Made by a program: the position numbers and the translations under genes | In this document: piece by piece, positions 3,201-47,568 of the stretch | Numbering within the stretch: the stretch's first letter is position 1 | How the letters are laid out: every line of letters begins with the position of its first letter | The notes under the pieces: model-generated | What the model was told of the DNA's origin: nothing | Database searches by the model: none | Seen by the model: only the letters and a program-made list of their open reading frames with translations | DNA from: Candidatus Zambryskibacteria bacterium CG10_big_fil_rev_8_21_14_0_10_42_12 | GTDB lineage: Bacteria; Patescibacteriota; Minisyncoccia; Phycocordibacterales; 1-14-0-10-42-12 | Assembly: GCA_002787695.1 (NCBI GenBank) | Contig: PCXL01000011.1 | Location: forward strand, 61,155-125,154 | Direction of reading: 5' to 3' | DNA: 64,000 nt

Positions 3201-3330
3201 AGGGGTCGGGGAAACTGGGTGTTTCCCCGTGGAGGAAGGCAGTGAGTCCTCGAACGTTGGAAAACCGTGGGTTTCCAAGGTCTCGTAAGGGTCAATGAAA
3301 AATTATCTGTGACCGAAAGTGTATTCACGT

Positions 3331-3348
3331 TTCCCCGTAGGGTCACAT
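3331..3348 (+). repeat. 18-nt perfect direct repeat of the tRNA-Glu 3' end (TTCCCCGTAGGGTCACAT)
   Basis: Identical to 3128-3145. The two copies bracket a 185-bp hairpin-rich segment at 3146-3330. Confidence 0.8.
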
Positions 3349-3391
3349 CAGGACTGATATTCTCGATAGATAATTATGATATATTTTCTTC

Positions 3392-4222: not shown

Positions 4223-4348
4223 GTCCAAACCTTGAAAATACGGCTTTATAAAAGAAAATTTTGTTTTTATATATTATAAAGAGCTTAAATCAGGAGTCGT
4301 CTTTTTTATTGATAAAGTTTATTTTTTGGACTAATATCCATAATACAG

Positions 4349-7343: not shown

Positions 7344-7581
7344 TGTTTTTATCTAAGCTCGTAAAAGTATCAATTGGTATCAATTTTAGCAGTAATGGGT
7401 ATTTTGGTATGGGGATAACGTTTGTAGGTTAAAACCAAGTATAAATTTAGGGGAGGTTTTAGCAGTGGTGTAAAAATATTGGTGGTACATATCTTTGGCA
7501 TGAACAAATTCGCGATAGGAGGTCTTTATATTGTGATCCTACGAAGCATTTAACGGAGAATTGTGATATAACGCTTATATT

Positions 7582-8714: not shown

Positions 8715-9362
8715 ATGCCGAATCATACGAAGTGGACTGATGACAGGTTGGCTGTGGTTCGAGAACTTGCGAGTGAGCAAGGTCTTACTGCACGTGCAAT
8801 ATTTGCCCTGCAAAGACCAGAGCTTACTGGATTCACCGAGCGTGCGATCCAAAATACGATGGCTCGGTTTGGGTACACGGATCCAAGGCGGAGCGCGCAA
8901 CGAAAGCGTGCGCGTCGCCTAACGAAGGACGAGAAGGAACGACTGATCGAATATCTCGAAGGTGACGGCGCAAAGAAATCGAACAAGCTCGTGGCAAAGA
9001 AGCTCAAAGTGCCGCTTGCTAGTGTCGAGTACTGGCGTAAGCAACTAGGTCAACGGGTCGATCGTAACAAGATTTTCAAATCTGCTGTGTATCGGCGGAG
9101 CGCGTCACGTCGGGCAACTCTGTATGGCCAAGAGATCAGAGAGGCGCGTCGAGCGCAATTTCGGGCGAGGCGCACACGTCTTATCCAACAACTGAGGAAG
9201 CAACCGGACAAGGTTTGTAGGACCTGTAAGGAGCCTTGGTTTGAAGATGAATTCTTCTTTTATCGCGCTTCGACGCGAAGCAAAGACAACAAGCGCTTAT
9301 TGTTTGCGACGTGCAAGGCGTGCGTCAGTGAACAGAGGGCGCGACAACGACGTCATGTCTGA
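8715..9362 (+). CDS. Hypothetical Arg-rich DNA-binding protein (predicted HTH segments plus C-terminal CxxC...CxxC zinc ribbon)
   Basis: 215 aa, about 52% GC against a roughly 42% background. Contains CRTCKEPW...CKACV. It follows the truncated kinase fragment and may be a mobile-element remnant. Confidence 0.45.
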   Translation: MPNHTKWTDDRLAVVRELASEQGLTARAIFALQRPELTGFTERAIQNTMARFGYTDPRRSAQRKRARRLTKDEKERLIEYLEGDGAKKSNKLVAKKLKVPLASVEYWRKQLGQRVDRNKIFKSAVYRRSASRRATLYGQEIREARRAQFRARRTRLIQQLRKQPDKVCRTCKEPWFEDEFFFYRASTRSKDNKRLLFATCKACVSEQRARQRRHV

Positions 9363-10078
9363 AAATGGGGGTCACCTGAAACACGGGTGACCCTTGTTCT
9401 TTTTTGTCTGAGCATTCTATATAATGTACACGCATAGGTAGACTCGCCGGTTTTCAGGCTCTCAGTTTTTGAAAGAAGATCATCTTCTGAACATGACGCA
9501 TTCTTACATGCAGTTTTTGTATTGCAAAAACCCAGAACGGAGCGTTTGGGGAAACAACCCTTAAAAAGGATTGACAAACGCTCCGTTCTGGGTTTTTAAC
9601 GTGCTTTCACCTTCATGAATGCCTTGCGGGCATTTTAATGATTTACAAGCTAAAGTCAAATATATGGCTCTGTTGGGTTTGACACTCAAAAAAATGTATC
9701 TCTTGTCCACAAAATGTGGATAAAGTTCGTTGACTCTTCATGGTCACGTCGTACCATTAGAAGTACGAGAACTGATGGGAAACCAGTACTCGGTCGCCGA
9801 CTATGCAATACAACTGGTTTCCAAAATTTTTCATAGCAGTATAAAACCGACAAACCCGGGGAAGAGGTATGTCGGTTTTTCGTAAAATTTGAAACCAGTT
9901 AGTCGAGAACCTCGACAATCCAAATGACAGAGCACAGAACGTGTTTGTGTTTTGATATTTGGATTGCCATTACGTATATCCCTTACACGGAGTATGCGTA
10001 TCGCAATTCAAAGTTAATGGTCGATATCATTCTCGTACGAGAAATTTATTACAAGAATTAATTAATCAAAGTAAAGAT

Positions 10079-10714
10079 ATGAAGAAAGTAACAGCAATTA
10101 TTGCTACAGTAGCATTTCTCGCAAGTGTGAACGTAGCAAACGCATGGTACTGGGGCGGATGGAATGATGATGACAATACGGTAAACATCAATACTACAAA
10201 TTCTGCAACAGTTTCAAATACAGTAACTACAAAGGCAAACACTGGCTCAAACACAACAGTTGGCGGTAGTGCTGGTAACACAGTATCTGGGTATGGCAAC
10301 AACGGTGGTAATGATGCTACTGGAGGAGATGCAGATGTTGATACTGGTGATGCAACAGCAGTTAGTGATGTTCTCAACAATGTGAACGGAACTGACATTA
10401 ACGTTGTTGGTCCAGACTGTGGTTGTGAAGGTGACAACGAAGTAAACGTAAACGTTAGAAATAGCGCAACGGTTACAAACGATGTTTACACCAAAGCAAA
10501 CACGGGCTACAACACAACAGTTGGCGGCAGTGCAGGTAATGATGTAGACGGCGCTACTCGCCCATGGTGGAGAAGACATCATGTGGTAAATGGTGGCAAC
10601 AACGGTGGTAATGATGCTACTGGAGGAGATGCAGATGTTGATACTGGAGAAGCAGTAAGTGGTACGGTGGTATCTAATTACGTAAACCAGACAATAGTTC
10701 GCGTACGACGATAA
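10079..10714 (+). CDS. Secreted repeat protein (signal peptide; internal repeats TKANTGxNTTVGGSAGN and NGGNDATGGDADVDTG)
   Basis: Start chosen at MKKVTAIIATVAFLASVNVANA (signal peptide). Two near-identical internal repeat blocks. Confidence 0.6.
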   Translation: MKKVTAIIATVAFLASVNVANAWYWGGWNDDDNTVNINTTNSATVSNTVTTKANTGSNTTVGGSAGNTVSGYGNNGGNDATGGDADVDTGDATAVSDVLNNVNGTDINVVGPDCGCEGDNEVNVNVRNSATVTNDVYTKANTGYNTTVGGSAGNDVDGATRPWWRRHHVVNGGNNGGNDATGGDADVDTGEAVSGTVVSNYVNQTIVRVRR

Positions 10715-10736
10715 TCGTACAAGGTGAGGAAGGTTC

Positions 10737-10782
10737 CCTTCCTCCCGCAAAATCCCATATTTTCGGGATTTTGCGGGAGGAA
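10737..10782. terminator. Intercistronic 16-bp perfect inverted repeat (CCTCCCGCAAAATCCC / GGGATTTTGCGGGAGG)
   Basis: Lies between the stop at 10714 and the start at 10794. Confidence 0.5.
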
Positions 10783-10793
10783 CACCGAAAATT

Positions 10794-11285
10794 ATGAAAA
10801 GAAACATCGTGTACATACTCTATATGGGAATATTATGGGCACTCGCACTCCCTGCGCAGGCTTATACAGAGGTGACAAATACGGTGACAACAGAGGCAAA
10901 TACAGGAGGCGGAGGTGGTACGGCGACGGTCAACACAAAGATCTACACAGAGGTAAATGGGGAGGTGATAACTGATATCGATGAGACAAAGACAAGCACA
11001 GACGGTTCTCCTGTAGTGATAGAAAAGGAAATCACATATTCAGATAATTGGAGAGATATACCAACGGACATAGACATGGTTTCAGAAACTCGTACGGAGA
11101 CATCTGTACAGGTTAAAGAGGATTCAGTAATGATGAATGAAGATGATGTCGATGCTATGGAAGAAGTAATGGAGGAGATGACGGAGGAGCGTCTAGAAGA
11201 TGTTGAGGCAAGATCAGAGGCACAGGTAACCGTGTTTGCACGCATTAAAGTATTTTTCAAAACATATGTATTTTGGTGGCTATAA
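10794..11285 (+). CDS. Secreted acidic protein sharing the T(E/K)ANTG motif with neighbours
   Basis: Signal peptide MKRNIVYILYMGILWALALPAQA, then YTEVTNTVTTEANTGGGGG and an acidic C-terminal half. Confidence 0.5.
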   Translation: MKRNIVYILYMGILWALALPAQAYTEVTNTVTTEANTGGGGGTATVNTKIYTEVNGEVITDIDETKTSTDGSPVVIEKEITYSDNWRDIPTDIDMVSETRTETSVQVKEDSVMMNEDDVDAMEEVMEEMTEERLEDVEARSEAQVTVFARIKVFFKTYVFWWL

Positions 11286-13938
11286 AAAAGACCCAATATG
11301 TGAACAAGTGCTAGCGATATGGATCGCGCTTGTGCTTGTATGTGTTCCTGGTGCACCACTGTATGCTGAAGAAGGTGGAGATGCGGAGATAAACACTGGA
11401 GACGCGACTGTTTCGGTTGAAGCAACAAATAGTGCGAACAACAATGTTGTAGACACTGAACCAGAACCAGATCCAGCAGAGGAAGAAGAACAACCTGAAT
11501 CTGTAGAGGAACAAAGTGCTGGCGAGTCAGATGGATCAACAGAAGAAGGTGGGGACGACGAAGGTGCCACATCATCGCCGAGTTTATTGAGTCAGGAACA
11601 GCATGAATTGGCAACGAGTACGGCAACATCGACAGACCCAGTTGCTCAAACGGAGGTCGCTTCAACAACGGGCACGACTACTACACACACAACTATAGAT
11701 ATTGATAATGAAGCACATCTGGAATCAGGTGCCGATTTACTTGCACAGACAGGCGAGAATACTGCGACAAGCACAGGAACGACCACGATAGAAACGGGTG
11801 ATGCATATGCAAACGTAAATATTTTGAATATTGCGAATACAAATATTATTGATTCCTACGGTTTCATGTTGCTCCTTAATAGTTTTATGGGAGATATTGG
11901 AACGATAGATTTTAGAGATTTTATAGCACCATTACTTTTTAATAATAATCAGCAGTCATCTTGTGGTACCGGAGTTTGTGGAGGAGATGATACGCTCGAT
12001 ATTTCTGGAACCAGTACAACAACCATAAACAATGCCGTTATCGTGCGTTCGCAGACTGGTGGCAACTCTGCTTCTGGTGGTGATGCGTCAATACAAACAG
12101 GAGATGCATATGCGGGTGCTAATGTGGTCAATATCGCGAATACTAATATTGTTGATTCGAACTATATGTTGCTTGCCCTCAACAATTTTGGAGATTGGTC
12201 GGGGGATTTGGTGTTGCCTGGAAAAGATTTCTTTATCAATATGCTCTATGGCATGGGTACGACTGGCGCAGGAACAGTGACGGTGAATACAGAAAACAAT
12301 GCGAACATTGAAAACGGAGTTTCTACAGTTGCCGATACAGGAGGTAACACTGCAACAAGTACAGAGAGTGGAGCCAATATTGAAACAGGAAATGCTACAG
12401 CTCAAACAAACGTAACGAATGTAGTAAACCAAAATTTCTTTAATCAGGATTCACTATTTATTATCTTTAAAGTGCATGGCACATGGTCGGGAAATGTATT
12501 TGGACTACCGCCAGGGCTTTCATGGCGCGAGACACCGCATGGTATTGAAGTATTTGGAAGTGGACAGACGCAGACAGGTTCATCTGGTACTGGCTTGAAT
12601 AATCTCTCGATAAACCAACAGAACAATGCCGACATTAAAAACAACGTAGAACTGTATGCTCTTACGGGAGAAAATGAAGCAGGGGGAGGTAATACATCTA
12701 TTCAAACAGGTAATGCGTACGCCGGTGCCAATGTGGTTAATATGGCAAACACTAATATCATTGGCCGCAACTGGATACTTGCCATCGTAAACATCTTTGG
12801 TGACTGGAATGGAAACTTGGCCTTTGGACGACCTGACCTCTGGATAGGTGGCAAAATAGAGCCCGTAAACCCAATGAGTCCTATTGGACCCGGTTCTGAA
12901 CTTCGATATAAAGTTGTTGTGGTAAATAGAGGAGATTCTGATGCGACAGATGTTGTGCTTAAACATCGTTTTGATGTGCCATTTGTCTCATTTGTAGACA
13001 CAAGTAATCCTCAGAAGGTGAATGAGAGAGATACACTATGGAATATTGGCACGATCGCTGTTGGCGAACATGTTGAAATAACATTGCCTGCAGTGGTAAA
13101 AAGTGCACGTGAAATTGTAAGTGGTACAACTCGTATTGAGAGCATGTTTGAGGTTACGTCGTTTGAAACGGATGCTGACAGTGGTGACAACAAAGAGCAT
13201 CTTTCTGTTGTTATAGATAACTATGATGCAAACCTATCTCCAGTAAATCTAAATCCAAACATAGAAGAACCGGTCGTGCCGGTATTACCAGACTTTAGTG
13301 TAGTGAAGACGAGCAGTACTCATACAACAGTGGCAAGCAGTACAGTGGAATATACCGTGACGCTTAAAAATAATGGTGGGTTTGCGCCTGATGCGGTAGT
13401 GATCGATGCACTCAAAGATGAGAACGGAAATATTGTTTTTGAGCAGGTATGGCAACTCGGTCCCGTCTATGAGAATGAGGAAATTACCATTACATACGGA
13501 ACTATCTTTAGTGGTGATATGGAACCGGGATTATACACAAACACTGCAGAAGTCATTGCAAAAGTATCTACCGATAGCGAAGATGTTATCCGATCTTCCG
13601 CCGATGCGATCGTCGCACTGGAAGCAGGTGTAGTGGTAGAACCGCCAGTGATTCCTGCACCAGTGGTACAGCCTGTCAGACGACAGATTGTGGCGATGAA
13701 TGATACATACGGTATAACCCTGATCCCTCCGATGTGTAGCCTCTACAGTTGCTTAATAGATACGGATGATGAGGCTTCTACTCAATTTGGGTTCGGTAAC
13801 ATGTTTCTCGCATCAGCCTTTGGTAGCGGATTCCCGCCAAGTGACGATAGATCACTCAAACTCTTTATTTTGGCAGCAGTCATGTATGCGGTTGGCAGAC
13901 CAAGAGAGAATCGTCATGGCATGTCACTGTTCTTCTAA
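11266..13938 (+). CDS. Large cell-surface protein: signal peptide, Thr/Asn-rich beta-helix-like repeats (TGxNxAxxGxAxIQTGxAYAGANVVNxANTNI), two DUF11/CARDB-like domains, C-terminal hydrophobic anchor
   Basis: The repeat recurs at least four times. The DUF11-like segments are YKVVVVNRGDSDATDVVLKHRFDVP and YTVTLKNNGGFAPDAVVIDAL. The start is inferred at MYFGGY, overlapping the previous gene. Confidence 0.6.
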   Translation: MYFGGYKKDPICEQVLAIWIALVLVCVPGAPLYAEEGGDAEINTGDATVSVEATNSANNNVVDTEPEPDPAEEEEQPESVEEQSAGESDGSTEEGGDDEGATSSPSLLSQEQHELATSTATSTDPVAQTEVASTTGTTTTHTTIDIDNEAHLESGADLLAQTGENTATSTGTTTIETGDAYANVNILNIANTNIIDSYGFMLLLNSFMGDIGTIDFRDFIAPLLFNNNQQSSCGTGVCGGDDTLDISGTSTTTINNAVIVRSQTGGNSASGGDASIQTGDAYAGANVVNIANTNIVDSNYMLLALNNFGDWSGDLVLPGKDFFINMLYGMGTTGAGTVTVNTENNANIENGVSTVADTGGNTATSTESGANIETGNATAQTNVTNVVNQNFFNQDSLFIIFKVHGTWSGNVFGLPPGLSWRETPHGIEVFGSGQTQTGSSGTGLNNLSINQQNNADIKNNVELYALTGENEAGGGNTSIQTGNAYAGANVVNMANTNIIGRNWILAIVNIFGDWNGNLAFGRPDLWIGGKIEPVNPMSPIGPGSELRYKVVVVNRGDSDATDVVLKHRFDVPFVSFVDTSNPQKVNERDTLWNIGTIAVGEHVEITLPAVVKSAREIVSGTTRIESMFEVTSFETDADSGDNKEHLSVVIDNYDANLSPVNLNPNIEEPVVPVLPDFSVVKTSSTHTTVASSTVEYTVTLKNNGGFAPDAVVIDALKDENGNIVFEQVWQLGPVYENEEITITYGTIFSGDMEPGLYTNTAEVIAKVSTDSEDVIRSSADAIVALEAGVVVEPPVIPAPVVQPVRRQIVAMNDTYGITLIPPMCSLYSCLIDTDDEASTQFGFGNMFLASAFGSGFPPSDDRSLKLFILAAVMYAVGRPRENRHGMSLFF

Positions 13939-28700: not shown

Positions 28701-28844
28701 GCTTCATTTTATAAACATGCCAGTCCCACGAGTTATCGTATAATGAAGCCACATGTTTACCGAGCACTTAGAAGTAGAATGTTTTAATAAAATACTGTAT
28801 CGAGGACTAAGTGCTTGGCTTATTAAATTATTCTGTCTATCCGT

Positions 28845-30134
28845 ATGAACCGTTTTCAGATCATTCTCATCGCAGCCTTCGCCTTTTTTGCTGTGTTTGG
28901 TGTATTTCTGTTTGCAACGTTCCGAGGTGCAGGTGAAAACCAACAGATCTCTGTCACGATGTGGGGTACTCTGCCACAGGTTGATTTCTATAGCTGGTAT
29001 AGCAGTACACCACTTAGTAAAAATAATAATATTACGGTCACATATGTGTATAAGAATCCGGATACATTTGACCAAGATTTTGTTGAAGCGCTTGCAGACG
29101 GAAGAGGTCCAGATATCATCTTTTTGCCTCATGAGAAAATTTTAGAACACGGCAACAGGATCTATCCGATTCCGTACGATACCCTTTCAGAACGCAATTT
29201 CAGAGATTTGTTCGTTGAAGGGACAGAGATTTTTCTTGGACCAAATGGATCTTACGCACTTCCGATCATCATTGATCCTTTAGTTATGTATTGGAATCGA
29301 GATATATTCCGAAATGCAGGCATTGCACAAGTACCACAATATTGGGATGAATTTCCATCACTTGCGCTGAGCTTGGTAGAACGTGATTCACTCAAAAATA
29401 TTACGCAAAGCGCTGTTGCTCTTGGAGAATACGGCAATGTATATCGGGCACGAGATATTATCTCCGTATTACTCATGCAAGCCGGTACGCCTATTACGCA
29501 ACAATCTTCATTGGGTCTCCAGTCCGTGTTGGGTAGTACGTTTAATTTTGCAACTATGCCTGCAGATGCGGCACTGACGTTTTATACACAGTTTGCAAAT
29601 CCGGCAAAAGATATTTACTCATGGAATCGCTCATTTAATAATTCATTAAACATTTTTGCATCAGGCGATCTGGGAATCCTGTTTGCACGTTCGTCAGATT
29701 TGTTTGCAATTCAATCACGTAATCCAAATTTAAACTTTGACGTAGCTCTTCTTCCTCAACCGCGTGAAGCGACAAATAAAATGACATATGGATACATGGA
29801 AGGTTTGGCGCTTGTAAAGCAGTCGCAAAAACTCTCTGGCGCATATCGTGTGATACAAGAGCTTACTAGTAAAGAGTCGGTGACTGCACTATCAAACATA
29901 CTCAAACTGCCTCCTGTTCGCCGAGATGTGCTGGTGAGCCGTCCGTCGGATGCATATCTCTCTGTGTTCTACGAGAGTGCTTTAATCTCTCAGGCGTGGC
30001 TTTCGCCACATCCTGCTACCACTGATAGTATTTTTAGAGATATGGTGGAATCTATTACAAGTGGGCGGTTGCGAATGGGTGAAGCGATTCGTGCTGCGAG
30101 TGATGCACTTAATCGTGCGCTCGGACGCAACTAA
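28845..30134 (+). CDS. Extracellular solute-binding protein (ABC transporter SBP family 1-like), N-terminal TM anchor
   Basis: DIIFLPHEKI and LPIIIDPLVMYWNRDIF are typical of sugar-type SBPs. Confidence 0.65.
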   Translation: MNRFQIILIAAFAFFAVFGVFLFATFRGAGENQQISVTMWGTLPQVDFYSWYSSTPLSKNNNITVTYVYKNPDTFDQDFVEALADGRGPDIIFLPHEKILEHGNRIYPIPYDTLSERNFRDLFVEGTEIFLGPNGSYALPIIIDPLVMYWNRDIFRNAGIAQVPQYWDEFPSLALSLVERDSLKNITQSAVALGEYGNVYRARDIISVLLMQAGTPITQQSSLGLQSVLGSTFNFATMPADAALTFYTQFANPAKDIYSWNRSFNNSLNIFASGDLGILFARSSDLFAIQSRNPNLNFDVALLPQPREATNKMTYGYMEGLALVKQSQKLSGAYRVIQELTSKESVTALSNILKLPPVRRDVLVSRPSDAYLSVFYESALISQAWLSPHPATTDSIFRDMVESITSGRLRMGEAIRAASDALNRALGRN

Positions 30135-30138
30135 CAAT

Positions 30139-30519
30139 ATGAAATTTCTAAACATAGCAGTTACAACCCTTATCACCGCGTCTCCTCTTTTATTGTATGC
30201 TCAAGAACAAGACGCAATGAGAGGAGAGATAACCGATGAGCGCTGTGAAGGATTTAGCTGTGATTATGGTGATTTAATAAATCTCATACAGGATATTTTA
30301 TTGTTTATGTTGAAGCTTTCAATACCGATCGCAGCTATCGCCCTTGCGGTTGCTGGGTTCAAGATTTTGACAGCACGAGATTCAGTCACAGAACGTAGTG
30401 AAGCTAAAACCATGATGCTTAAAATAGTAGGTGGCGTTATGATTATGTTGGCAGCAGGACTGATTGTGAATACGATTGTTGGTGCGTTATTGCAAGGCGA
30501 CTTTAATTTTTTGGATTAA
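30139..30519 (+). CDS. Small 2-TM pilin-like protein (TrbC/VirB2-like), paralog 1 of 6
   Basis: Signal peptide MKFLNIAVTTLITASPLLLYAQ, then two TM helices with a charged loop. Confidence 0.5.
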   Translation: MKFLNIAVTTLITASPLLLYAQEQDAMRGEITDERCEGFSCDYGDLINLIQDILLFMLKLSIPIAAIALAVAGFKILTARDSVTERSEAKTMMLKIVGGVMIMLAAGLIVNTIVGALLQGDFNFLD

Positions 30520-30523
30520 CATT

Positions 30524-30973
30524 ATGAAATATATCTTCATTACCGTGATACAGGCTGTTTTCATAGGAATGTTTATGATATCCAGTGTAAGTTTTGCGGA
30601 AACAGGTATTGAACCGGGCACCCCTAGTGGAGGTGGTACAGGTATTGAACCGGGCACCCCAGGTGGCAGTCCTGCGTCCCATCAAATCAACTTTCAAAAC
30701 CCGCTCTCGCTTGGAGAAAATGCAACCATCTCAACATTTATTGAGTCAATCCTTAGAAATATTGTTGTTCCGATAGGAGCAGTCGTATCTGTGTTCTTTA
30801 TTATCTATGCAGGCTTCCTGTTTGTGACAGCGCGCGGAAGCGAAGACAAAGTGACAAAAGCAAAAACTGCACTCCTCAATGCGGTTATTGGTACAGTTAT
30901 TATTTTAGGATCATGGGTGATTGCCCAGGCAATTTCAGGCACTGTCTCACAACTAGGAGGCCCAACGTTATAA
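30524..30973 (+). CDS. Small 2-TM pilin-like protein, paralog 2 (Gly/Pro-rich GIEPGTP repeat insert)
   Basis: Signal peptide, duplicated TGIEPGTPxGG, then TM-loop-TM. Confidence 0.5.
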   Translation: MKYIFITVIQAVFIGMFMISSVSFAETGIEPGTPSGGGTGIEPGTPGGSPASHQINFQNPLSLGENATISTFIESILRNIVVPIGAVVSVFFIIYAGFLFVTARGSEDKVTKAKTALLNAVIGTVIILGSWVIAQAISGTVSQLGGPTL

Positions 30974-30980
30974 ACGTATT

Positions 30981-31319
30981 ATGAAAAAAATCGTCTTACT
31001 TTCTACACTTTTTGCACCTCACCTGCTATTTGCCCAACTAATTACATCAGACTTTAAAAGTTTTGTTACGAGCCTGGTGAATGCGTTTTTACCGACACTG
31101 TTGGGTATCATTGCTCTTATTTTGTTTTTGTATTTCGTCTGGCGTGTAGCACAGTTTATTTTGCATGCAGACAGTAAAGAAACACGTTCATCTGCGAGTC
31201 GAGTGTTTCTCTGGGGTATTCTCGCTCTGTTTGTTGCAGCATCACTTGTTGCCATAATTTCATTTTTACTGGGAGAGTTTGGTTTTGGCGTACCGGTTAT
31301 TCCTAAATTGCCACAATAA
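30981..31319 (+). CDS. Small 2-TM pilin-like protein, paralog 3
   Basis: Signal peptide MKKIVLLSTLFAPHLLFAQ and a VFLWGILALFVAASL core. Confidence 0.5.
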   Translation: MKKIVLLSTLFAPHLLFAQLITSDFKSFVTSLVNAFLPTLLGIIALILFLYFVWRVAQFILHADSKETRSSASRVFLWGILALFVAASLVAIISFLLGEFGFGVPVIPKLPQ

Positions 31320-31378
31320 CAGTGGGTTGTTGATAAATAGTAGTCATTTGAGCATTAAACATATTACAATTAAAAATT

Positions 31379-31753
31379 ATGAAAAAAAGTATATATATAA
31401 GTTTGCTAGCATTATCACCACTCATTGTATTGGCACAACCATCTAGTGGTTATTTAACACAATCACAAGGTTTATTGGATGGAGTTTTAAATACGATTAC
31501 ATTACTTATTGGTATTGCAATTGTGCTCGCGTTTCTATTTTTTGTGTGGGGTATTGCAGAATTTATCCGTAAGGCAGATGATGCTGGCAATAGAGCAGAA
31601 GGTCGCCAGAGAATGATCTGGGGTATTGTTGCGCTCGCTGTTCTTGCAACTGTCTGGGGTATTGTGAGATGGCTACAGATTGAACTTGGTCTTTCTGCAA
31701 ACGAAGCTGCGCCGGGAATATTCCAATTCTTCCAGCTTTGGAGTGGTAACTAA
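31379..31753 (+). CDS. Small 2-TM pilin-like protein, paralog 4
   Basis: Signal peptide, then AGNRAEGRQRMIWGIVALAVLATVWGIV. Confidence 0.55.
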   Translation: MKKSIYISLLALSPLIVLAQPSSGYLTQSQGLLDGVLNTITLLIGIAIVLAFLFFVWGIAEFIRKADDAGNRAEGRQRMIWGIVALAVLATVWGIVRWLQIELGLSANEAAPGIFQFFQLWSGN

Positions 31754-31838
31754 TCCACATTGTATCCTTGCCACTTCCGTAGTAGCATTGTCTCATAGGT
31801 GCTAAACGCCCTTAATTATAAAGTTTTATTTACTCAAA

Positions 31839-32189
31839 ATGAAAAAAGCAGTTATTACTTCTTTGATGCTTGGCGCAATGCCGTTTATTGCAAGTGCCCA
31901 GCTTGAAAACATTGAAGACATTGTTGTATCAATTGGTGATATTATCGACCTTTTGGTACCTATTGTGTTTGCACTCGCTATCCTCTATTTCTTCTGGGGA
32001 CTTGCACAATTTATCTTGGCTTCAGGAGACGAAACCGCACGTGCAGAAGGCCGCCAGAAGATGATCTGGGGTATTGTAGCAATTGCAGTAATGGCATCTA
32101 TCTGGGGACTTGTGTTCTTCTTGCAAGATGCTGTTGGTGTAAGTCGAGTAGACGCACCGTCTATCGATGTTATTCCGACTGTCAACTAA
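31839..32189 (+). CDS. Small 2-TM pilin-like protein, paralog 5
   Basis: Signal peptide, then ARAEGRQKMIWGIVAIAVMASIWGLV, almost the same motif as paralog 4. Confidence 0.55.
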   Translation: MKKAVITSLMLGAMPFIASAQLENIEDIVVSIGDIIDLLVPIVFALAILYFFWGLAQFILASGDETARAEGRQKMIWGIVAIAVMASIWGLVFFLQDAVGVSRVDAPSIDVIPTVN

Positions 32190-32209
32190 CGAGAGTGCTA
32201 TAAGATTCC

Positions 32210-32485
32210 ATGGATAGCTTCGGAACATTGCTTGGTAAGATAAACGAGTTCATTATCAATCCGATTATCTACGTCCTCTTTGCGGTTGCATTTATCTTCT
32301 TCTTTATCGGACTTATACAGGTTGTCAAAGGATCAAAAGAAGGTGGAGATGATTTTGCAAAAGGGAAGAGAAACATGCTCTATGGACTTATCGGATTTGT
32401 CGTGATGTTTGGAGTTTACGGCATTATCAACCTGCTCTTAGGAACATTTGGAATCGATACACCGGAATATCTGCAAGGGTTGTAG
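32210..32485 (+). CDS. Small 2-TM membrane protein related to the pilin-like array (no signal peptide)
   Basis: FAKGKRNMLYGLIGFVVMFGVYGI motif analogous to the paralogs. Confidence 0.45.
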   Translation: MDSFGTLLGKINEFIINPIIYVLFAVAFIFFFIGLIQVVKGSKEGGDDFAKGKRNMLYGLIGFVVMFGVYGIINLLLGTFGIDTPEYLQGL

Positions 32486-32507
32486 AAAAATAAGATTCAG
32501 ATAACGA

Positions 32508-32552
32508 AAGACCGCCTGACGGATCCCTTGCGGGACCGTCAGGCGGTTTTGG
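32508..32552. terminator. Bidirectional compound hairpin terminator
   Basis: ACCGCCTGACGG...CCGTCAGGCGGT plus TTTT, between the pilin array and the convergent minus-strand gene. Confidence 0.6.
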
Positions 32553-32566
32553 TTGTGGAGGCGACA

Positions 32567-34873
32567 TCAGTCTACCTCCGGAAACAGAACCCATAGTCGA
32601 TTGACATATGGCTCTGCATTTTCGGTCATGATCCGGATGGTCCTGAAATTACTTCGCAGGACAGTTCCGGACTGACCGACTCTAAACGGTTCTCCGCCGT
32701 CTAGAGAGATGAGAAGTCGATCATCAACCATCATCAGTCGCTCGAGATTTGTGTATTTCGAGCGCGCTATGATGCTGTCGACTTGCGCCTTACCGTTCTC
32801 CATACCGAGCCGTTCGAGCTCGGAGGAGACATAGGAGCGGAGCTCTTCGACAACATCTATCGTTTCTCCCCAGACGCCATTGCCTGGGGCGGCAAACATG
32901 ATTCCTCTTTTTCTTTGGAATCCCCCTGCTCGAGCTTTTGCCTCGAGCTTGTCGATTGTTCGTTGCCAAGGAGAAAAACTCCTCCCGGCAGCAACATAGA
33001 CGGCATGTGCCCAGCGTACGTGCTCCTCGATGTCATGCTCATACGGGTCAATGCCCATATTGCGAGCAATTCCACCATGGAACCCGGCGTTGACTTGGCA
33101 TAAGCCTATGTCTTCATTGTCCGAACCGCGCAAGATCGTGCCGTCGTCATTGTAGTGACGTAAGCCCGACTCTTCGCGACAAATGGCGAGCATCCACCGG
33201 ACTGCTTCCGGACCTTCGCTGTCGAAGACTTGTTGGATAATCGCCTCTGCTTGAGCGGCAGGTATGAGATTGTGCTGCTCAAGGGCTTGTTCAGTTTGTT
33301 TCGGAGCATCGTCAGATCCTCCAAACCAGTCCAACCAACCTCCTTTATTCTCAGAGCGCTCGAGCTGCTGCTTGTACTGCAGCCAGCGGATACCTTCCTC
33401 CGAGGTTAACGGTTTTCCTGGAACTCCAATTCTCGAAGAACCAGGATTGTTGGCAACGCACGCATAGACGTGCACCATCCACCAATCTCCGTCTTCACCT
33501 GTAGGAGACGTATCTCCCTCAGGGCGACAGTACAGGGCAACCCCCTCTTTTGTGAAGAGGATATTGTCCTCAAAATCCTGCCTCATCTGCTTTGCCGTAT
33601 GGATTACTCCAGGAAGCGAAGTGATAAAGGAGGGAGTGAGAATGGTGAGTACCGTTCCCACAGTGGCTAGTGATGCCAGTGTGGTAAACCATGAACCTAC
33701 AACGCGAGAACCGGTTATCCGGTGGTACACTCCGTTAAAGGTCAGAATAGCGATACCGACCGCCATTATGGTGTGAAGTGTCGAGTGGTCTTTGAGCGGT
33801 AAGTGTGCAAGCATTCCGCTCATGAGACCAACGACCATCAGAAATCCGAGAACGGCCCAATACTTCTGCCGTGCGGGTTTGAAACCCATGAGGCGAAGCA
33901 TGAGTGCTCCTATTCCGAAGAGGAGCACGAGGGGGATTGCATACATAAGCAATTGCCCCAAAATAGATTCCGCTCCACTACCACTCACAACGAGTCCTAG
34001 TGCCAATTTATACCCAAAGTATACGATAAGCGCAGGACCCACGATGAAGATGATGATGGAGAAAGCGAAAACGGTGCATGCCAAGTACCACAGTGCTCGG
34101 GCAACTCTGTCTGCAGGTGCTTCTTCCTGCATCACAAACGGCACTGGGCCGTTTGGCGTGAACACGGGAACCATTCTCCCAGAACCGGCCATTCGTCCGA
34201 GTGACGCTAATCCGGGTCGTCGAGCGATTAAGCTCTCTGCGAACCGGGTGAATTTTTGCCAGCGAGTGGCTTGGTAGAGGAACTCGAGCTGGGACGTAAC
34301 CCACGCATCGTATTCTTGTACCGTTTCACCCTCTTTCATCTTCCGAAAAATACGCCGGAAGATGTTTACGAAAAGCTTTACCGGATCTCCAGCAGAAATC
34401 CAGGTAATGGTTCCATCGGGATTGCGTGTTGCCACGTCAAACCCATTTTTGGCCGCACGCCACGCCTGGCCGATCGCGTTCTCGCGATCGTCGGATGGGT
34501 TGCGGTGGAAATAGTCTTGGGCACGTGTCCAGCCGCTCTTGAGTTGATCGGCCAGGATCATCTTGGCTTCCTTGGCGTATTCGCCGCGGAAGGTTTTGAT
34601 GACGATATTGGCGATGACTTCGGCGGCTTTGTCAGGGTCGCCCCCGAAGCCGCCAACCACCTTTTTCCCCACGCTGATGATGATGTCGTACAGGACTTCA
34701 TCTTTCACCGCAGAGAACATGCCTTTTGCTGCGGATTTGATATTCCGCAGTATGTTTCGTAACATTTCTTCTCTCCTTGGCGCGAGATGCGCCGATACTC
34801 TAGATTGTGATAGACCTAAGTCCTCATATATTATAACAAAAAATGGTGAATTGTCAATGTAATTATTTGACAA
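32567..34873 (-). CDS. Polytopic membrane protein with C-terminal SLT-type lytic transglycosylase domain (VirB1-like activity on a VirB6-like multi-TM body?)
   Basis: Central block of five or more TM helices. C-terminal AICREESGLRHYN...DIGLCQVN...Y gives the SLT catalytic Glu-Ser, GLxQ and Tyr motifs. GC about 52-55%. Confidence 0.65.
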   Translation of the reverse strand: MSNNYIDNSPFFVIIYEDLGLSQSRVSAHLAPRREEMLRNILRNIKSAAKGMFSAVKDEVLYDIIISVGKKVVGGFGGDPDKAAEVIANIVIKTFRGEYAKEAKMILADQLKSGWTRAQDYFHRNPSDDRENAIGQAWRAAKNGFDVATRNPDGTITWISAGDPVKLFVNIFRRIFRKMKEGETVQEYDAWVTSQLEFLYQATRWQKFTRFAESLIARRPGLASLGRMAGSGRMVPVFTPNGPVPFVMQEEAPADRVARALWYLACTVFAFSIIIFIVGPALIVYFGYKLALGLVVSGSGAESILGQLLMYAIPLVLLFGIGALMLRLMGFKPARQKYWAVLGFLMVVGLMSGMLAHLPLKDHSTLHTIMAVGIAILTFNGVYHRITGSRVVGSWFTTLASLATVGTVLTILTPSFITSLPGVIHTAKQMRQDFEDNILFTKEGVALYCRPEGDTSPTGEDGDWWMVHVYACVANNPGSSRIGVPGKPLTSEEGIRWLQYKQQLERSENKGGWLDWFGGSDDAPKQTEQALEQHNLIPAAQAEAIIQQVFDSEGPEAVRWMLAICREESGLRHYNDDGTILRGSDNEDIGLCQVNAGFHGGIARNMGIDPYEHDIEEHVRWAHAVYVAAGRSFSPWQRTIDKLEAKARAGGFQRKRGIMFAAPGNGVWGETIDVVEELRSYVSSELERLGMENGKAQVDSIIARSKYTNLERLMMVDDRLLISLDGGEPFRVGQSGTVLRSNFRTIRIMTENAEPYVNRLWVLFPEVD

Positions 34874-34970
34874 ATAACTTAAATTATGATAATAAAGTGC
34901 TAGAACGGCTCTCTAAAGCCATTCGACCTTTTACATAGAGAATGTGGGTGAGGCCCACAGGGAGAAAATG

Positions 34971-36341
34971 ATGAGGAAACTTATCGTATTGGCGAGCGTG
35001 CTCGCCATGATGTGCACGATGCTGGCTTCGGGCCAGACGTTGTTCGAGGGTGTCATTCAGACGAACGACAACCGCGAGGAGGTCGTCAAAATCACGGAGC
35101 AACCAGCGGTGCAGCCGCAGAAGCAAATCCAGGCTGTTGCGCCACAGGCGCAGCAGATCGAAGAGACTCAGGTGGCGGCACCTGTCGATCAGTCGGCGGT
35201 GACTCCTGAACCGACTGCGCCGGCTCAGGATGTCGCGGTTCAGACAGGCATACCTGACAACCCGACAAGCGAGTGGTTGGTCGAGTACATGCTCGGTGGT
35301 CTCTACTGGATAGTCAGAGCCGCATCAGATCTGACATTCTGGCAGATTTTGCTCATTATCCTGGCTGTATTGGCGGTAGCGGGGTTAGGGTATGGATGGT
35401 CGCAATTTCCGCACCCAGTAGCAGATCTGAAATCAAGAATGCGATCGGTATGGCGCAAGTTGCGGGTAGTGTTCGGTGATCATAAGTATCACCGTACCGA
35501 AACTTCCGGCGGACCGTATCGTAAACTGACGCTACTCGAGGATGTATTACGCCAAGGTTCAAAGTCAGGACCTCAACTGGTCTTGTTCTTGGGACTTTAC
35601 GCTGGTGTAGCGTCGGCGGCAGTGCTGACCAACGAGCCTGTGCTTCACCCACAAAACATCGAGCCGGTTGCCGTTGTTGAGAACACGACGTCGACTGTCA
35701 CGATCAGTTGCACGGCGAACATGTCGTGCAACAAGGTGAAGTCTGCGCGACTGGGTACGTCTGACCACGTGTCTGTAACTGCAACATCCAAAGACAAACT
35801 GGTGTTGCAGGTGAAAACTGGTCCTCGTTCGCACATTCAGGAGGACCGTATCGTTCTCCACTACGGTGATGGGGTGGAAAGGCGAATCGCCGGATTCTTC
35901 ACGCTGCCACGTCAGGCAGCTGAGACGATCGAATTCATGATGCGGTTGCATCCTGGTGAGCAGGAGGCTGGAGGTGCACACAGTGCAATCACTGCGGTCC
36001 TCCAAGCTGAGATCGACCGGATCGACCAGCACAAAGTTGACCCGCTCCGTGAGGAGGTAGAGAAACTCAAAGCTCGTGTCCAAGAAAACGAGCAACGAGT
36101 CAGGACAAATACCGGTCTCATGGCCGAGGTGCGCGACGAAGTCGTTGCTCTTCGTGACAGGGTCGGCGAGACAGAAGAGCGACTCGGCAAGCTCGAGCAC
36201 ACCGAGCGCTCACAGGTACTCTACGCCTGTGCCGGTTTCGGCACACGGCAAGAAAATGGCGCCGCACTTGCTGCGGTTGCCAAACGAGAAGGGAAGACAC
36301 CGAAGCAAGTCTGCGAAGACATGCAAACGGATCCTTTCTGA
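34971..36341 (+). CDS. Hypothetical exported/membrane protein with Gln/Pro-rich linker and C-terminal coiled coil (GC-rich)
   Basis: Signal-like N-terminus MMRKLIVLASVLAMMCTML, an internal TM segment ILLIILAVLAVAGLGYGW, and a C-terminal heptad-rich EEVEKLKARVQENEQRV... About 58% GC. Confidence 0.5.
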   Translation: MRKLIVLASVLAMMCTMLASGQTLFEGVIQTNDNREEVVKITEQPAVQPQKQIQAVAPQAQQIEETQVAAPVDQSAVTPEPTAPAQDVAVQTGIPDNPTSEWLVEYMLGGLYWIVRAASDLTFWQILLIILAVLAVAGLGYGWSQFPHPVADLKSRMRSVWRKLRVVFGDHKYHRTETSGGPYRKLTLLEDVLRQGSKSGPQLVLFLGLYAGVASAAVLTNEPVLHPQNIEPVAVVENTTSTVTISCTANMSCNKVKSARLGTSDHVSVTATSKDKLVLQVKTGPRSHIQEDRIVLHYGDGVERRIAGFFTLPRQAAETIEFMMRLHPGEQEAGGAHSAITAVLQAEIDRIDQHKVDPLREEVEKLKARVQENEQRVRTNTGLMAEVRDEVVALRDRVGETEERLGKLEHTERSQVLYACAGFGTRQENGAALAAVAKREGKTPKQVCEDMQTDPF

Positions 36342-36496
36342 TCTGATCAGTTTCCAAATCCAGACCGAGTAGTACCACGTTGTACTGCTCGGCCTGTTTT
36401 AATTTCGAAAAATGTTTAAAATTAGCCATAAAAATGCTCATGGTATTATTAATAAGGAACACAGCTCTGCAATATATATAGGTATAGGAGGCTCAC

Positions 36497-37156
36497 ATGC
36501 GGAAAGGGGTAGTACTGGTTATCTTGTTGTCTCTTGTCGCAACCATTGTTTTTGGATGGTTGTGGTGGAAGACGACCAAGGTCACGCAGGAAGTCGACAG
36601 AGAGATACGTAGGTTGAGAGAGGATATACAACAATCGGAACAGGAATCACGTATAGAAGCTTTTGTCTCGTCGCAGACACAGGCTTTGACGGAAGCACAC
36701 ACGACCGATATGCGTGGACTGCGACAAGAGTTGGCTCAGAATCGACAAGAACTAGAGCGGATAGTGAAGGAGGTGGAAACTCAGAAGGCACTGATTGCCG
36801 AGCGCACTACTCGACAGGAAGTCCAAAAGGAAATAGACGCAAGAGCGAGTATCTTGGCAGATCGTCTCAAGCAGCTCGCTATACGTGTGCTCGATCTCAG
36901 TCGTCGTGTGCAAGAAAATCTGCAACTTGCTCTTGAAGCCAAAGGTGCTTTGGCGGAATTGCAAGACCATGTGCGACGTATAAAACAGGTGACCGATGAC
37001 AACACGCATGAGATACAGGAATTAAATCAAATGCATACATACCGGATTCGGACTGCCTGTGTGCTTGGATACAGCAATGATCCGGATCTTGTGCTGCGTG
37101 CGGAGCGTGTTCGCCTGTCACCTGCGGAGTTTTGTGAACAATTTTTGTCGCAATAG
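36497..37156 (+). CDS. Hypothetical membrane-anchored coiled-coil protein (GC-rich)
   Basis: N-terminal TM VVLVILLSLVATIVFGWLWW followed by about 150 aa of coiled-coil-like sequence. Confidence 0.5.
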   Translation: MRKGVVLVILLSLVATIVFGWLWWKTTKVTQEVDREIRRLREDIQQSEQESRIEAFVSSQTQALTEAHTTDMRGLRQELAQNRQELERIVKEVETQKALIAERTTRQEVQKEIDARASILADRLKQLAIRVLDLSRRVQENLQLALEAKGALAELQDHVRRIKQVTDDNTHEIQELNQMHTYRIRTACVLGYSNDPDLVLRAERVRLSPAEFCEQFLSQ

Positions 37157-37339
37157 CGACTTTCGTCGAGGAGAAGCGCTCCTCGACGAGTTTTTAATGT
37201 TTGTCAAAAAAGCAAAAATAAGCATACAATAGGGACTGCTTGTCCGGGTGATGGAATCCCAAGTAGCAAAGCGAAGCTTACTACGGGACGGGTTGGTAAC
37301 ATAGGAAAAATTACTGAGTGTTGTTTAATAATTTGGAAT

Positions 37340-37988: not shown

Positions 37989-38061
37989 CCGCCCATAGCT
38001 CAGTTGGTAGAGCAGTCGCCTCTTAAGCGAACGGTCGTAGGTTCGAATCCTACTGGGCGGA
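37989..38061 (+). tRNA. tRNA-Lys (anticodon CTT)
   Basis: CCGCCCATAGCTCAGTTGGTAGAGCAGTCGCCTCTTAAGCGAACGGTCGTAGGTTCGAATCCTACTGGGCGGA. It has anticodon loop CTCTTAA and an unusual C1:G72. Confidence 0.75.
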
Positions 38062-38076
38062 TGTAATTTAACTCTC

Positions 38077-38784
38077 GTGCTAATGTTTTTTATATTAATA
38101 TATGGTATACGCTATATGCCTTACAATATTAAATACTACAAAACATATCAGTGGAGTAAAAAGTTGGCATATATAATTGGACTTATTGCAACAGATGGAA
38201 GTCTGTCTGTTGACGAGCGTCATATTGATTTTACATCTAAAGATTTAGAGCTTATCAAAATTTTTAAAGATTGTCTGAAACTTTCAAATAAAATAGGTAT
38301 TAAGAAGAGCGGCACAAACAGAGTTTGTTTTTGTATACAATTTGGTAACAAGAATTTTTACAACTTTCTAAATTCTATAGGGATTTATAAGGCTAAATCC
38401 AAAACTATAAAAAGGATTGATATACCTAATAAATATTTTCCACATTTTTTACGTGGCTGTTTGGATGGCGATGGTAATATTGATTTATACAAACATGCAC
38501 AAAGTCAATATATGCAAATTAGATTTAGATTTGCATCTGCGAGTAAACCATTTCTAGAATGGATATTACAGGTATTAAAAATAAAATATAGTATTGAAGG
38601 AGGTTGGATTTATAGTCAAAAAAATAAATCAACCCATGTTTTAGTCTTTGGTAAGACAGACACTTTGAAAATTGGAAAAATCATGTATCATGACCATGCG
38701 AACTTATGCTTACAAAGGAAGTTTGCAAAATATAAACAATGGGCAAGTGGCGGAATTGGTATACGCGCTAGTCTTAGGAACTAG
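38077..38784 (+). CDS. LAGLIDADG homing endonuclease (double-motif), AT-rich; 3' end overlaps tRNA-Leu(TAG) by about 44 nt
   Basis: Two LAGLIDADG motifs, LAYIIGLIATDGSLS and FLRGCLDGDGNID. About 28% GC. It lies between tRNA-Lys and tRNA-Leu(TAG). Confidence 0.8.
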   Translation: MLMFFILIYGIRYMPYNIKYYKTYQWSKKLAYIIGLIATDGSLSVDERHIDFTSKDLELIKIFKDCLKLSNKIGIKKSGTNRVCFCIQFGNKNFYNFLNSIGIYKAKSKTIKRIDIPNKYFPHFLRGCLDGDGNIDLYKHAQSQYMQIRFRFASASKPFLEWILQVLKIKYSIEGGWIYSQKNKSTHVLVFGKTDTLKIGKIMYHDHANLCLQRKFAKYKQWASGGIGIRASLRN

Positions 38785-38822
38785 TGCCGCAAGGCTTGGG
38801 AGTTCGAGTCTCCCCTTGCCCA
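38741..38822 (+). tRNA. tRNA-Leu (anticodon TAG), type II
   Basis: GGGCAAGTGGCGGAATTGGTATACGCGCTAGTCTTAGGAACTAGTGCCGCAAGGCTTGGGAGTTCGAGTCTCCCCTTGCCCA. Confidence 0.85.
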
Positions 38823-38950
38823 CAGTGAGTTTTCGAACGAGGACAAGGACTAGCTTGTGATAACAAGCGTTAGTCTGACTCGAAGCCTGTTTGAGATATT
38901 TTGTGAGCTGGCGAAACAAAATATCCAAACACGGGTACTGAACCTGTAAG

Positions 38951-46624: not shown

Positions 46625-47431
46625 ATGGCTAGACGCTGGACAAAAGAAGAAGAGAAGTATTATCGAGATGAATTAGTAAATTTATATTACTCCAAAAACT
46701 TGAGCATGCATGAGGTAGCAAAGGTTTTGAATATAAAATCAGCTACGGTTTTTGATAGATTGCGCCGGTTACGTATTAACACGGTGCCTCATCTTAAGAA
46801 GGGTTATCGAAACGTTCGCAAAGATATTCGTATCCCAGATTGTCATGATGCAAATTTGGCAGAATTTTTTGGCATCATGTTGGGCGACGGCCACCTTTCT
46901 CATTTTCAAGTAACCGTAACATTGGGAACAAAAGAATATGTGTATGTGCAATATGTAAAAAAGTTAATGGAAAAAATTTTTAAAGTGCCAGTTAAAATCT
47001 CAGAAAGGAAGTTTAAGCGAACGGATAATAAGCATTATACTGTTTATTTTGGTTCAACCGTAACGAGTCAGTGGTTAAAAACTGAGGGTTTAGTAGAAAA
47101 TAAAGTGAAAAATCAAGTCGATGTTCCAAAGTGGATATTTGAAAATAATATATTCATGGAAAGATTTTTAAGAGGGTTTTTTGATACTGATGGATCGGTT
47201 TATAAATTGAGGCACGGCATACAAATTGGACTAACAAACCGTTCACTACCGATGCTGAAATCTTTACAATTGATGCTAAAAACACTAGAATACAGGACGT
47301 CTGAAATCAGTGGTTTTCGCTTGTATATAACAAAGAAGCAGGATCTAAAAAGGTTTTTTAAAGAGATTAAACCGAAAAATCCAAAACATACTGCCAGATT
47401 TCAGGAATATCTCAATGCGTCAGTCGCATAG
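46625..47431 (+). CDS. LAGLIDADG homing endonuclease (double-motif) with N-terminal HTH; 3' end overlaps tRNA-Tyr by 15 nt
   Basis: Two LAGLIDADG motifs, LAEFFGIMLGDGHLS and FLRGFFDTDGSVY. N-terminal LSMHEVAKVLNIKSATVFDRLRRL is HTH-like. AT-rich. The stop codon TAG lies inside the tRNA-Tyr acceptor/D region. Confidence 0.8.
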   Translation: MARRWTKEEEKYYRDELVNLYYSKNLSMHEVAKVLNIKSATVFDRLRRLRINTVPHLKKGYRNVRKDIRIPDCHDANLAEFFGIMLGDGHLSHFQVTVTLGTKEYVYVQYVKKLMEKIFKVPVKISERKFKRTDNKHYTVYFGSTVTSQWLKTEGLVENKVKNQVDVPKWIFENNIFMERFLRGFFDTDGSVYKLRHGIQIGLTNRSLPMLKSLQLMLKTLEYRTSEISGFRLYITKKQDLKRFFKEIKPKNPKHTARFQEYLNASVA

Positions 47432-47500
47432 TGGCAATTGCACGAGACTGTAAATCTCGCGGCCTTTTGGCCTACGGGGGTTCGAGTCCCTCCTGGCGCA
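47417..47500 (+). tRNA. tRNA-Tyr (anticodon GTA), type II
   Basis: GCGTCAGTCGCATAGTGGCAATTGCACGAGACTGTAAATCTCGCGGCCTTTTGGCCTACGGGGGTTCGAGTCCCTCCTGGCGCA. Confidence 0.8.
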
Positions 47501-47568
47501 CAATAAAGTAAAACAGCTCGCAAGGAGCTGTTTTACTTTGTATTGCTCTGTTTGGTATATTTAATCCT

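Follow-up and report, generated by a model that had tools for sequence, protein, structure and literature searches.

How do ultrasmall bacteria of the Candidate Phyla Radiation (CPR), or Patescibacteria, attach to and feed on their hosts? This open question of the field is raised in a concrete form by six small membrane-protein genes, here called P1 to P6, of CG10_big_fil_rev_8_21_14_0_10_42_12, a bacterium of Candidatus Zambryskibacteria (assembly GCA_002787695.1). They occupy positions 30139-32485 of the window, by which we mean the whole stretch of 64,000 nucleotides of contig PCXL01000011.1 (61,155 to 125,154, forward strand) that was analyzed, and an earlier note on this DNA had described them as a tandem array of paralogous pilin-like genes of the TrbC/VirB2 type. 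In the sole species of this group for which there is genetics, a type IV secretion system (T4SS) and its pilin array are essential: the predicted pilins within the T4SS cluster of Southlakia epibionticum ML1 could not be dispensed with (Wang et al., 2023, PMC10633639), and a 2025 review describes them as six VirB2-like proteins, structurally conserved and divergent in sequence, for which a pilus-like conduit is speculated (PMC12857230). Our preferred answer, to which we give a probability of roughly 0.6, is that the present locus is a Paceibacteria form of the known Patescibacteria VirB2 pilin arrays, a native operon of one solute-binding protein (SBP) gene and six pilin genes whose products would build a VirB4-dependent filament or conduit.

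Results

Six consecutive open reading frames (ORFs) on the plus strand with products of 91-149 aa make up the array, just as had been described, and neighbors are 1-85 nt apart: P1 (30139-30519, 126 aa), P2 (30524-30973, 149 aa), P3 (30981-31319, 112 aa), P4 (31379-31753, 124 aa), P5 (31839-32189, 116 aa) and P6 (32210-32485, 91 aa). The proteins of the locus are deposited at NCBI as PIR38239-PIR38245 (locus tags COV34_01330-01360), every one of them annotated as 'hypothetical protein'. BLASTP comparisons confirmed that the six are paralogs. P4 is 44% identical to P5 (E 9e-29), 34% to P3 (E 3e-17) and 27% to P6 (E 6e-12); P3 and P5 share 30% identity, P5 matches P6 with an E value of 6e-13, and P2 is 35% identical to P1 (E 7e-9) and 32% to P6 (E 7e-7). 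Local identity between array copies ranges from 15 to 44%, and identity to P1 in a multiple alignment from 18 to 24%. When the 64-kb window was searched with a hidden Markov model (HMM) of the family, P1-P6 were matched and no other ORF. A segment held in common by P4 and P5 was found as had been claimed, although "near-identical" overstates the likeness (19 of 26 positions are identical) and the pattern that had been written for it, A[GR]NRAEG, does not fit P5 exactly.

Four of the six proteins pass the curated thresholds of a pilin family in Pfam. P1 scores 29.7 bits against PF04956 (TrbC/VirB2; cutoff 27.9), and P2, P4 and P5 score 37.9, 42.2 and 39.3 bits against PF18895 (T4SS_pilin; cutoff 26.6), P2 also reaching 27.2 bits with PF04956. 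P3 (22.7 bits) and P6 (25.3 bits) fall just under the PF18895 cutoff, yet both are paralogs of P4 and P5 (E 1e-12 to 1e-17), and all six proteins match PF04956 or PF18895 with E values of 1e-4 or lower. In NCBIfam, all six have as their top match, and five of them as their sole match, NF045849, a family for pilin-like proteins of conjugal transfer in Mycoplasma ICEs. The scores, 20-37 bits, all lie under the family cutoff of 40, and P6 has in addition a weaker match to TIGR03943. No holin or bacteriocin-immunity family is found among the matches of P1-P6, either in Pfam at E values up to 1 or in NCBIfam at E values up to 0.01. The four Pfam assignments, the best NCBIfam match and the lack of any holin or immunity family support the TrbC/VirB2-like reading, and by family membership, as judged from these sequence profiles, P1-P6 are T4SS-pilin paralogs of the VirB2/TrbC superfamily. 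Searching plasmids with P1 by tblastn gave no more than three matches, all of them weak (E=2), and each carries the annotation TrbC/VirB2 family protein. A pilin profile run against the sequences of the PDB found no pilin and gave only chance matches (E > 0.04), and no sequence or fold match of P1-P6 to solved pilins was obtained.

The plasmid matches of P1 include genes of the Gram-positive Macrococcus (NZ_CP083605.1, 13357-13557; NZ_CP091282.1, 32004-32204). Their annotation as TrbC/VirB2 family proteins conflicts with what is stated generally, namely that VirB2 homologs are missing from the T4SSs of monoderms.

We compared the locus, using our own ORF calls and HMMs, with close relatives (L002-L007) and with 27 species-level genome loci (L008-L034), and distinguish four classes of array protein, represented by P1, by P2, by P3, P4 and P5 together (the middle class), and by P6. 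The architecture proposed earlier, a signal peptide followed by two transmembrane (TM) helices with a charged loop between them, holds for P1-P5. In each, the hydrophobic leader at the N-terminus ends with A-Q or A-E, and two long hydrophobic segments follow, with a charged loop of some 15 residues between them. P6 departs from this architecture, having the two TM helices but lacking a signal peptide; in 22 of the 23 members of the P6-like class only two hydrophobic segments are present. An AlphaFold2 model of P4 (pLDDT 73) is a helical hairpin of residues 25-64 and 72-102. P1 carries a pair of Cys residues that is kept across its orthologs. P2 has a Gly/Pro-rich linker with a 12-aa duplication, and the duplicated GIEPGTP insert noted before is accounted for by a 29-nt direct repeat (30602-30630 and 30638-30666, 93% identical), which Tandem Repeats Finder missed. 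The linker that precedes the first TM helix in this class, rich in Gly, Pro and Ser, carries differing short tandem duplications in different lineages: TGIEPGTP twice in the window, QQNPGDIG twice in L002 (gene at 9115-9567), EGGRSGPV twice in L005 (9078-9533) and SGPTNTP twice in L032, with L024 also listed. Such lineage-specific duplications suggest that the segment is prone to repeats and probably exposed at the surface.

Same-strand arrays of four to seven pilin-like genes, most often six, are present at nearly all 27 species-level loci; the exceptions are L009 with two genes, L020 with three on a truncated contig, and L023, which carries two arrays of six and four genes. Classes were assigned in the resulting 28 arrays. 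The order P1-like, P2-like, two to four P3/P4/P5-like, P6-like is exact in 15 of them and is nearly followed in the close relative L005; elsewhere it is uncontradicted, save for one middle gene of L034 that scores marginally best as P6-like. A P1-like gene comes first in 20 of the 28 arrays and a P6-like gene last in 21. Both L002 (57-79% identity) and L005 (38-65%) carry an ortholog of each of P1-P6, one to one and with the gene order unchanged, which indicates that the paralogs are older than these species and that each has been retained. P4 is 57% identical to its ortholog in L002 and 50% in L005, and P6 surpasses the other five in conservation against L002 (79%) and is level with P5 against L005 (64% and 65%). 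Neighboring genes are 81-96% identical to those of L002 (GyrA 89%, SBP 81%; 86% and 72% in L005), so that the pilins evolve faster than these neighbors. Recent amplification of the array, or its homogenization by gene conversion, was considered and rejected on account of the one-to-one orthologs. The neighborhood reads S1-MBL-GyrA-MTase-SBP-[array]-variable genes-IF2 and is conserved even where GyrA is only 61-70% identical.

Two of the compared sets deserve separate mention. The arrays of L023 (Paceibacterota) lie at 3298-5516 and 9244-11079 with five minus-strand genes between them and no SBP gene upstream, and the product of the last gene of this locus, 259 aa long, has a T4SS_pilin domain (PF18895, 36.5 bits) at its N-terminus. 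Loci L018 and L028-L032 come from TPA assemblies titled 'uncultured Candidatus Saccharibacteria bacterium'; their GyrA-MTase-SBP-array synteny is of the Paceibacteria type, their GyrA is 64-69% identical to that of the window, and these labels may therefore be unreliable.

The array does not stand alone on its strand. The gene directly upstream (28845-30134, plus strand) encodes an SBP (SBP_bac_1; Pfam PF01547, E 9e-20; PF13416, E 3e-17) that is anchored in the membrane by a hydrophobic N-terminus, and its stop codon lies 4 nt ahead of the P1 start. In 23 of the 27 species-level loci an SBP ortholog, in most only 36-46% identical, is found immediately upstream of the array, and in 19 of those 23 the distance from the SBP stop to the first pilin start is about -4 to +22 nt. 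The SBP gene is a member of the same conserved operon as the pilins. It is also an orphan, since no ABC permease or ATPase was found beside it in the relatives or anywhere in the window in our Pfam scan, which covered 55 ORFs, taken to be plausible genes, with a length of 150 aa or more; every such locus was included, with eight ORFs overlapping a scanned gene omitted. A candidate sigma-70-like promoter upstream of the SBP gene (28717-28744, plus strand; ATGCCA-16-TATAAT, 10/12 in a consensus scan) is a weak pattern match and possibly serves the operon. At the other end, an intrinsic terminator between the convergent genes (32509-32550), a hairpin with a T-run, closes the pilin operon; the fold of region 32486-32566 has an energy of -40 kcal/mol (z -6.4), and none of 200 shuffled sequences folded equally well. 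The array is located between gyrA and infB in a window of 42.8% GC that also holds genes for FtsZ, FtsA, S1, GyrA, IF2, ClpB, ParB, RelA, TopA, DprA and SerRS, and the GC content at third codon positions (GC3) of the pilin genes, 0.28-0.46, is native in comparison with 0.33-0.40 in the housekeeping genes. A native, vertically inherited operon of the SBP gene and P1-P6, closed by a strong terminator, is the best explanation of these data.

On the opposite strand, as anticipated, and tail to tail with P6 follows a gene for a polytopic membrane protein (32567-34765, minus strand; 717 aa according to NCBI, 732 aa according to JGI), a VirB1-like candidate with a GH23/lysozyme-like extracytoplasmic domain. 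A perfect sigma-70 consensus promoter with an extended -10 element (34830-34857, minus strand; TTGACA-16-TG-TATAAT, 12/12) lies inside the mechanically called ORF of 768 aa, and the true gene start must therefore be further downstream. In the numbering of that ORF, the protein has a long cytoplasmic N-terminus, no fewer than four hydrophobic stretches within residues 257-417, two of which could each hold two helices, and a C-terminal extracytoplasmic region.

A lytic transglycosylase domain had been proposed for this neighbor. The polytopic topology holds and, at the level of the lysozyme-like superfamily, the domain is supported by profile and fold evidence, although the protein has no Pfam match of its own: the whole protein, each of its halves and the L002 ortholog gave no credible match even at E values up to 10. 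With the 768-aa protein as query, a word-indexed homolog search found no other protein, and phmmer gave no match in the PDB. An exhaustive full-library HMMER search recovered about 100 small homologs of residues ~555-640, the predicted catalytic core (32954-33211, minus strand; motif CREESG...DIGLCQVN), and a profile built from these matches C-type lysozymes in the PDB (E 1.4e-3). At E values up to 0.1, 14 of 39 homologs match PF18896 (SLT_3; best E 3e-4) and 13 of 39 match PF01464 (SLT; best E 2.7e-5). Residues E, G, D, G, Q and W, among them the Glu of the motif, are invariant in an alignment of 49 sequences, and the Glu of the E-S/T motif is retained in 10 of 11 syntenic homologs. An AlphaFold2 model (pLDDT 84.5) has as its top Foldseek matches the lytic transglycosylase MltE (probability 0.97, E 0.057). 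A convergent homolog follows the array in 12 lineages, about half of those compared, at a distance of 48-230 nt (1.2 kb in L011). The protein of the window is only 30% identical to its L002 counterpart and has none in L005. In lineages without the lysozyme-like protein, the variable genes on the minus strand that come directly after the array repeatedly include one for an SPFH/Band_7 domain membrane protein (L005, 12234-13178; L018, 12478-14130).

This gene is part of an island of foreign composition (32567-37200; GC 0.50-0.53 against ~0.42 elsewhere) that terminates at tRNA-Leu 37340. GC3 is 0.56 in the lysozyme-like gene, 0.61 in the gene of a 465-aa coiled-coil protein and 0.48 in that of a 219-aa protein. 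In L002, L005 and L006 the equivalent region is hypervariable and has a high GC content, and repeated replacement or biased gene conversion are possible causes. Elsewhere in the window, two free-standing LAGLIDADG endonuclease ORFs adjoin tRNA genes, one (38077-38784) between tRNA-Lys (37989-38061) and tRNA-Leu (38741-38823), overlapping the latter, and one (46625-47431) that overlaps tRNA-Tyr (47417-47501). A low-GC stretch at 4000-8000 (0.32-0.34) may be a restriction-modification or mobile island, to judge from the two adjacent N6/N4 DNA methylase genes on the minus strand (5665-6414 and 6414-7343) and the DUF4268 protein gene that it contains. Large DUF11/CLIPPER-repeat proteins of 900 aa (11236-13938) and, just upstream of the window, 1438 aa (L035, 1987-6303) are likely to be surface adhesins of an epibiont-type genome.

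Discussion

How could the products of this operon work? Reasoning from the pilin family and from the genetics of Southlakia, we propose that the Sec pathway would export P1-P5 and that signal peptidase I would cleave them behind a conserved Ala, so that Gln would become the first residue; the site is predicted from the A|Q pattern that is conserved in the P4/P5 group. An N-terminal Gln is also what processed VirB2 carries. P6 would insert into the membrane without a leader, and all six proteins would reside there as helical hairpins with the charged loop in the cytoplasm. A VirB4-type machine encoded elsewhere in the genome might then extract the pilins and polymerize them into a surface filament or conduit touching the host cell, and the convergent membrane-bound lysozyme-like enzyme may, as VirB1 does, make a local opening in the cell wall. 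The fixed order of the four classes over deep divergence suggests distinct roles, such as base, major, minor and exposed subunits, and speaks for a defined multi-subunit structure.

Several observations weigh against this proposal. Neither VirB4, VirD4, VirB6 nor other T4SS core genes were found by the Pfam scan of the 64-kb window, in agreement with the earlier note as regards the VirB4 and VirD4 ATPases, and there are no T4SS genes in the ~3.2 kb of contig past its left end. At the 27 related loci no VirB4-type ATPase occurs among the ORFs that are 480 aa or longer and lie up to 10 kb from the array, nor was VirD4, VirB6 or another T4SS core gene found at that distance, so that in this lineage the link to a T4SS is drawn from family membership and from other classes of the phylum. 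The function of T4SSs in Patescibacteria has been termed 'completely unknown' (PMC11665869), and a pilus of the VirB2-like family has been seen in no Patescibacterium. The conserved coupling to an SBP is a feature of which the pilus model gives no account. On the other side, assembly GCA_002787695.1 has a VirB4 according to Table S1 of PMC12102498. The earlier note had set its reading against a genome devoid of any T4SS ATPase in which the six proteins would belong to unrelated two-TM families; with VirB4 listed there and no holin or immunity match for P1-P6, what we see differs on both counts.

The SBP lies at the heart of the alternative that P1-P6 form a membrane-resident hetero-oligomer together with the co-transcribed SBP, for example an SBP-fed uptake pore that works independently of a T4SS. 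The position of the SBP gene directly upstream in 23 of 27 loci with tight spacing in 19, its status as an orphan with no permease or ATPase nearby, the lack of VirB4 within 10 kb in any locus and the four ordered classes, which suit a defined hetero-complex, would all fit such a pore. We nevertheless regard it as unlikely. All profile matches are to conjugative pilin families, and the same Pfam family is found inside the T4SS clusters of other Patescibacteria classes, where it is essential; moreover, the entire S1-MBL-GyrA-MTase-SBP stretch is syntenic, so that the adjacency of the SBP may in part reflect general conservation of gene order. We know of no transporter made of two-TM hairpins with cleaved leaders. 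A related and equally doubtful idea adds the neighboring enzyme: the SBP, the ordered pilin set and the membrane muramidase could constitute a self-contained Paceibacteria envelope apparatus, a heteromeric filament or conduit that imports host molecules and is possibly VirB4-independent. Were this true, the VirB2 fold would here be put to a new use, one other than the conjugative pilus.

A different view of the same array takes its genes for interchangeable pilin variants that serve antigenic or host-range variation, as for the virB2 paralogs of Bartonella and Anaplasma, a hypothesis that has been put forward for Patescibacteria (PMC12102498). The pilins do outpace their neighbors (57-79% against 81-96% identity to L002), the middle class varies between two and four copies, and the P2 linker has been duplicated independently in several lineages. 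Against this, one-to-one orthologs and the four-class order persist where GyrA is only 61-70% identical, the classes differ structurally in the Cys pair of P1, the linker of P2 and the leaderless P6, and the genes lie together in one operon, where neither silent cassettes nor invertible promoters are in evidence. The fixed class order argues against interchangeable host-range variants; the paralogs are probably not interchangeable copies, and we give the variant hypothesis a low probability. Far less probable still is a reading in terms of unrelated two-TM families, holins or bacteriocin immunity proteins, with the lysozyme-like neighbor as an endolysin. It is true that small two-TM proteins here adjoin a lysozyme-like gene and that the downstream island is foreign in composition, but no family of either kind was matched in Pfam (E up to 1) or NCBIfam, five of the six proteins have predicted cleavable signal peptides, the array is native in composition and sits in a housekeeping neighborhood conserved in 23 of 27 related loci, no phage genes are near, and the lysozyme-like protein is itself polytopic, convergent with a promoter of its own and absent in about half of the lineages. 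A holin-endolysin pair and bacteriocin immunity genes were accordingly rejected for want of family matches and because of the housekeeping context.

The pilin operon reading, which we prefer, does not make the locus a new kind of system. The identification is correct and, as to its kind, essentially known, because VirB2 arrays of Patescibacteria have been surveyed with the same models. What the comparison adds is the fixed class order, the leaderless class, the coupling to an orphan SBP and the recurrent lysozyme-like neighbor, all away from VirB4. These comparative data make the problem of host attachment and feeding more testable, since they name specific partners, the SBP and the muramidase.

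Comparison with Known Systems

The closest counterparts are the Patescibacteria arrays themselves; the source is indeed a CPR bacterium, as the earlier likening of the topology to small membrane proteins at T4SS-like loci of such bacteria had suggested. In a survey of 3,035 Patescibacteria assemblies, GCA_002787695.1 among them, PF04956 and PF18895 were used to identify 441 'VirB2 arrays' of 2-11 genes in 383 assemblies, with a mean identity between copies of 25% and a maximum of 54%; of 1948 assemblies, 1135 had a pilin gene close to virB4 (Quinonero-Coronel et al., 2025, PMC12102498). An array was defined there as at least two PF04956/PF18895 genes in tandem or one gene apart with an i-Evalue < 0.001. 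By this definition P1-P6 are a VirB2 array, the divergence of the copies included, and the locus was very probably counted in that survey. The present array resembles the published ones in its tandem, same-strand PF04956/PF18895 genes, their low identity and the monoderm CPR genome; the arrays of the survey, however, are mainly from Microgenomatia and Saccharimonadia, and the one described here is from Paceibacteria.

VirB2 of the Agrobacterium T-pilus and TrbC of RP4 are likewise small proteins with a leader, two hydrophobic helices and a short charged loop, and P1 passes the threshold of their family, PF04956. In the diderm systems, however, a single pilin gene stands beside virB3/virB4 and a VirB5 tip protein is present, whereas here the envelope is monoderm, the signal peptides are short and of the ordinary kind, and six paralogs stand with no T4SS genes adjoining them. 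Mbov_0395/MMCAP2_0565 (NF045849), the best NCBIfam match, belongs to a monoderm-type (MPF-FATA) conjugation system and is a single gene in the transfer cluster of an integrative and conjugative element, in contrast to the chromosomal six-gene array. The virB2 arrays of Bartonella and Anaplasma phagocytophilum (cited in PMC12102498) share with ours the tandem arrangement, the divergence of the copies and the host-dependent way of life, but those arrays lie within or beside the virB loci of diderms and are thought to give variation, while the classes described here are old, ordered and orthologous between species. The convergent enzyme is comparable to the VirB1-type hydrolases of monoderms (TrsG/CD419/PrgK-like) in having a membrane-anchored GH23/lysozyme-like domain encoded beside T4SS-family genes. 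It differs from them in its four or more hydrophobic stretches, its long cytoplasmic N-terminus and the lack of a CHAP or M23 domain, as well as in its foreign composition, its identity of 30% between close relatives and the absence of a Pfam match of its own. With Southlakia epibionticum ML1 the array has its six copies in common, but the Zambryskibacteria array lies outside a T4SS cluster and at least 30 kb from any VirB4. What finally distinguishes it from the published VirB2 arrays is an SBP gene in the same operon and a fixed order of four pilin classes.

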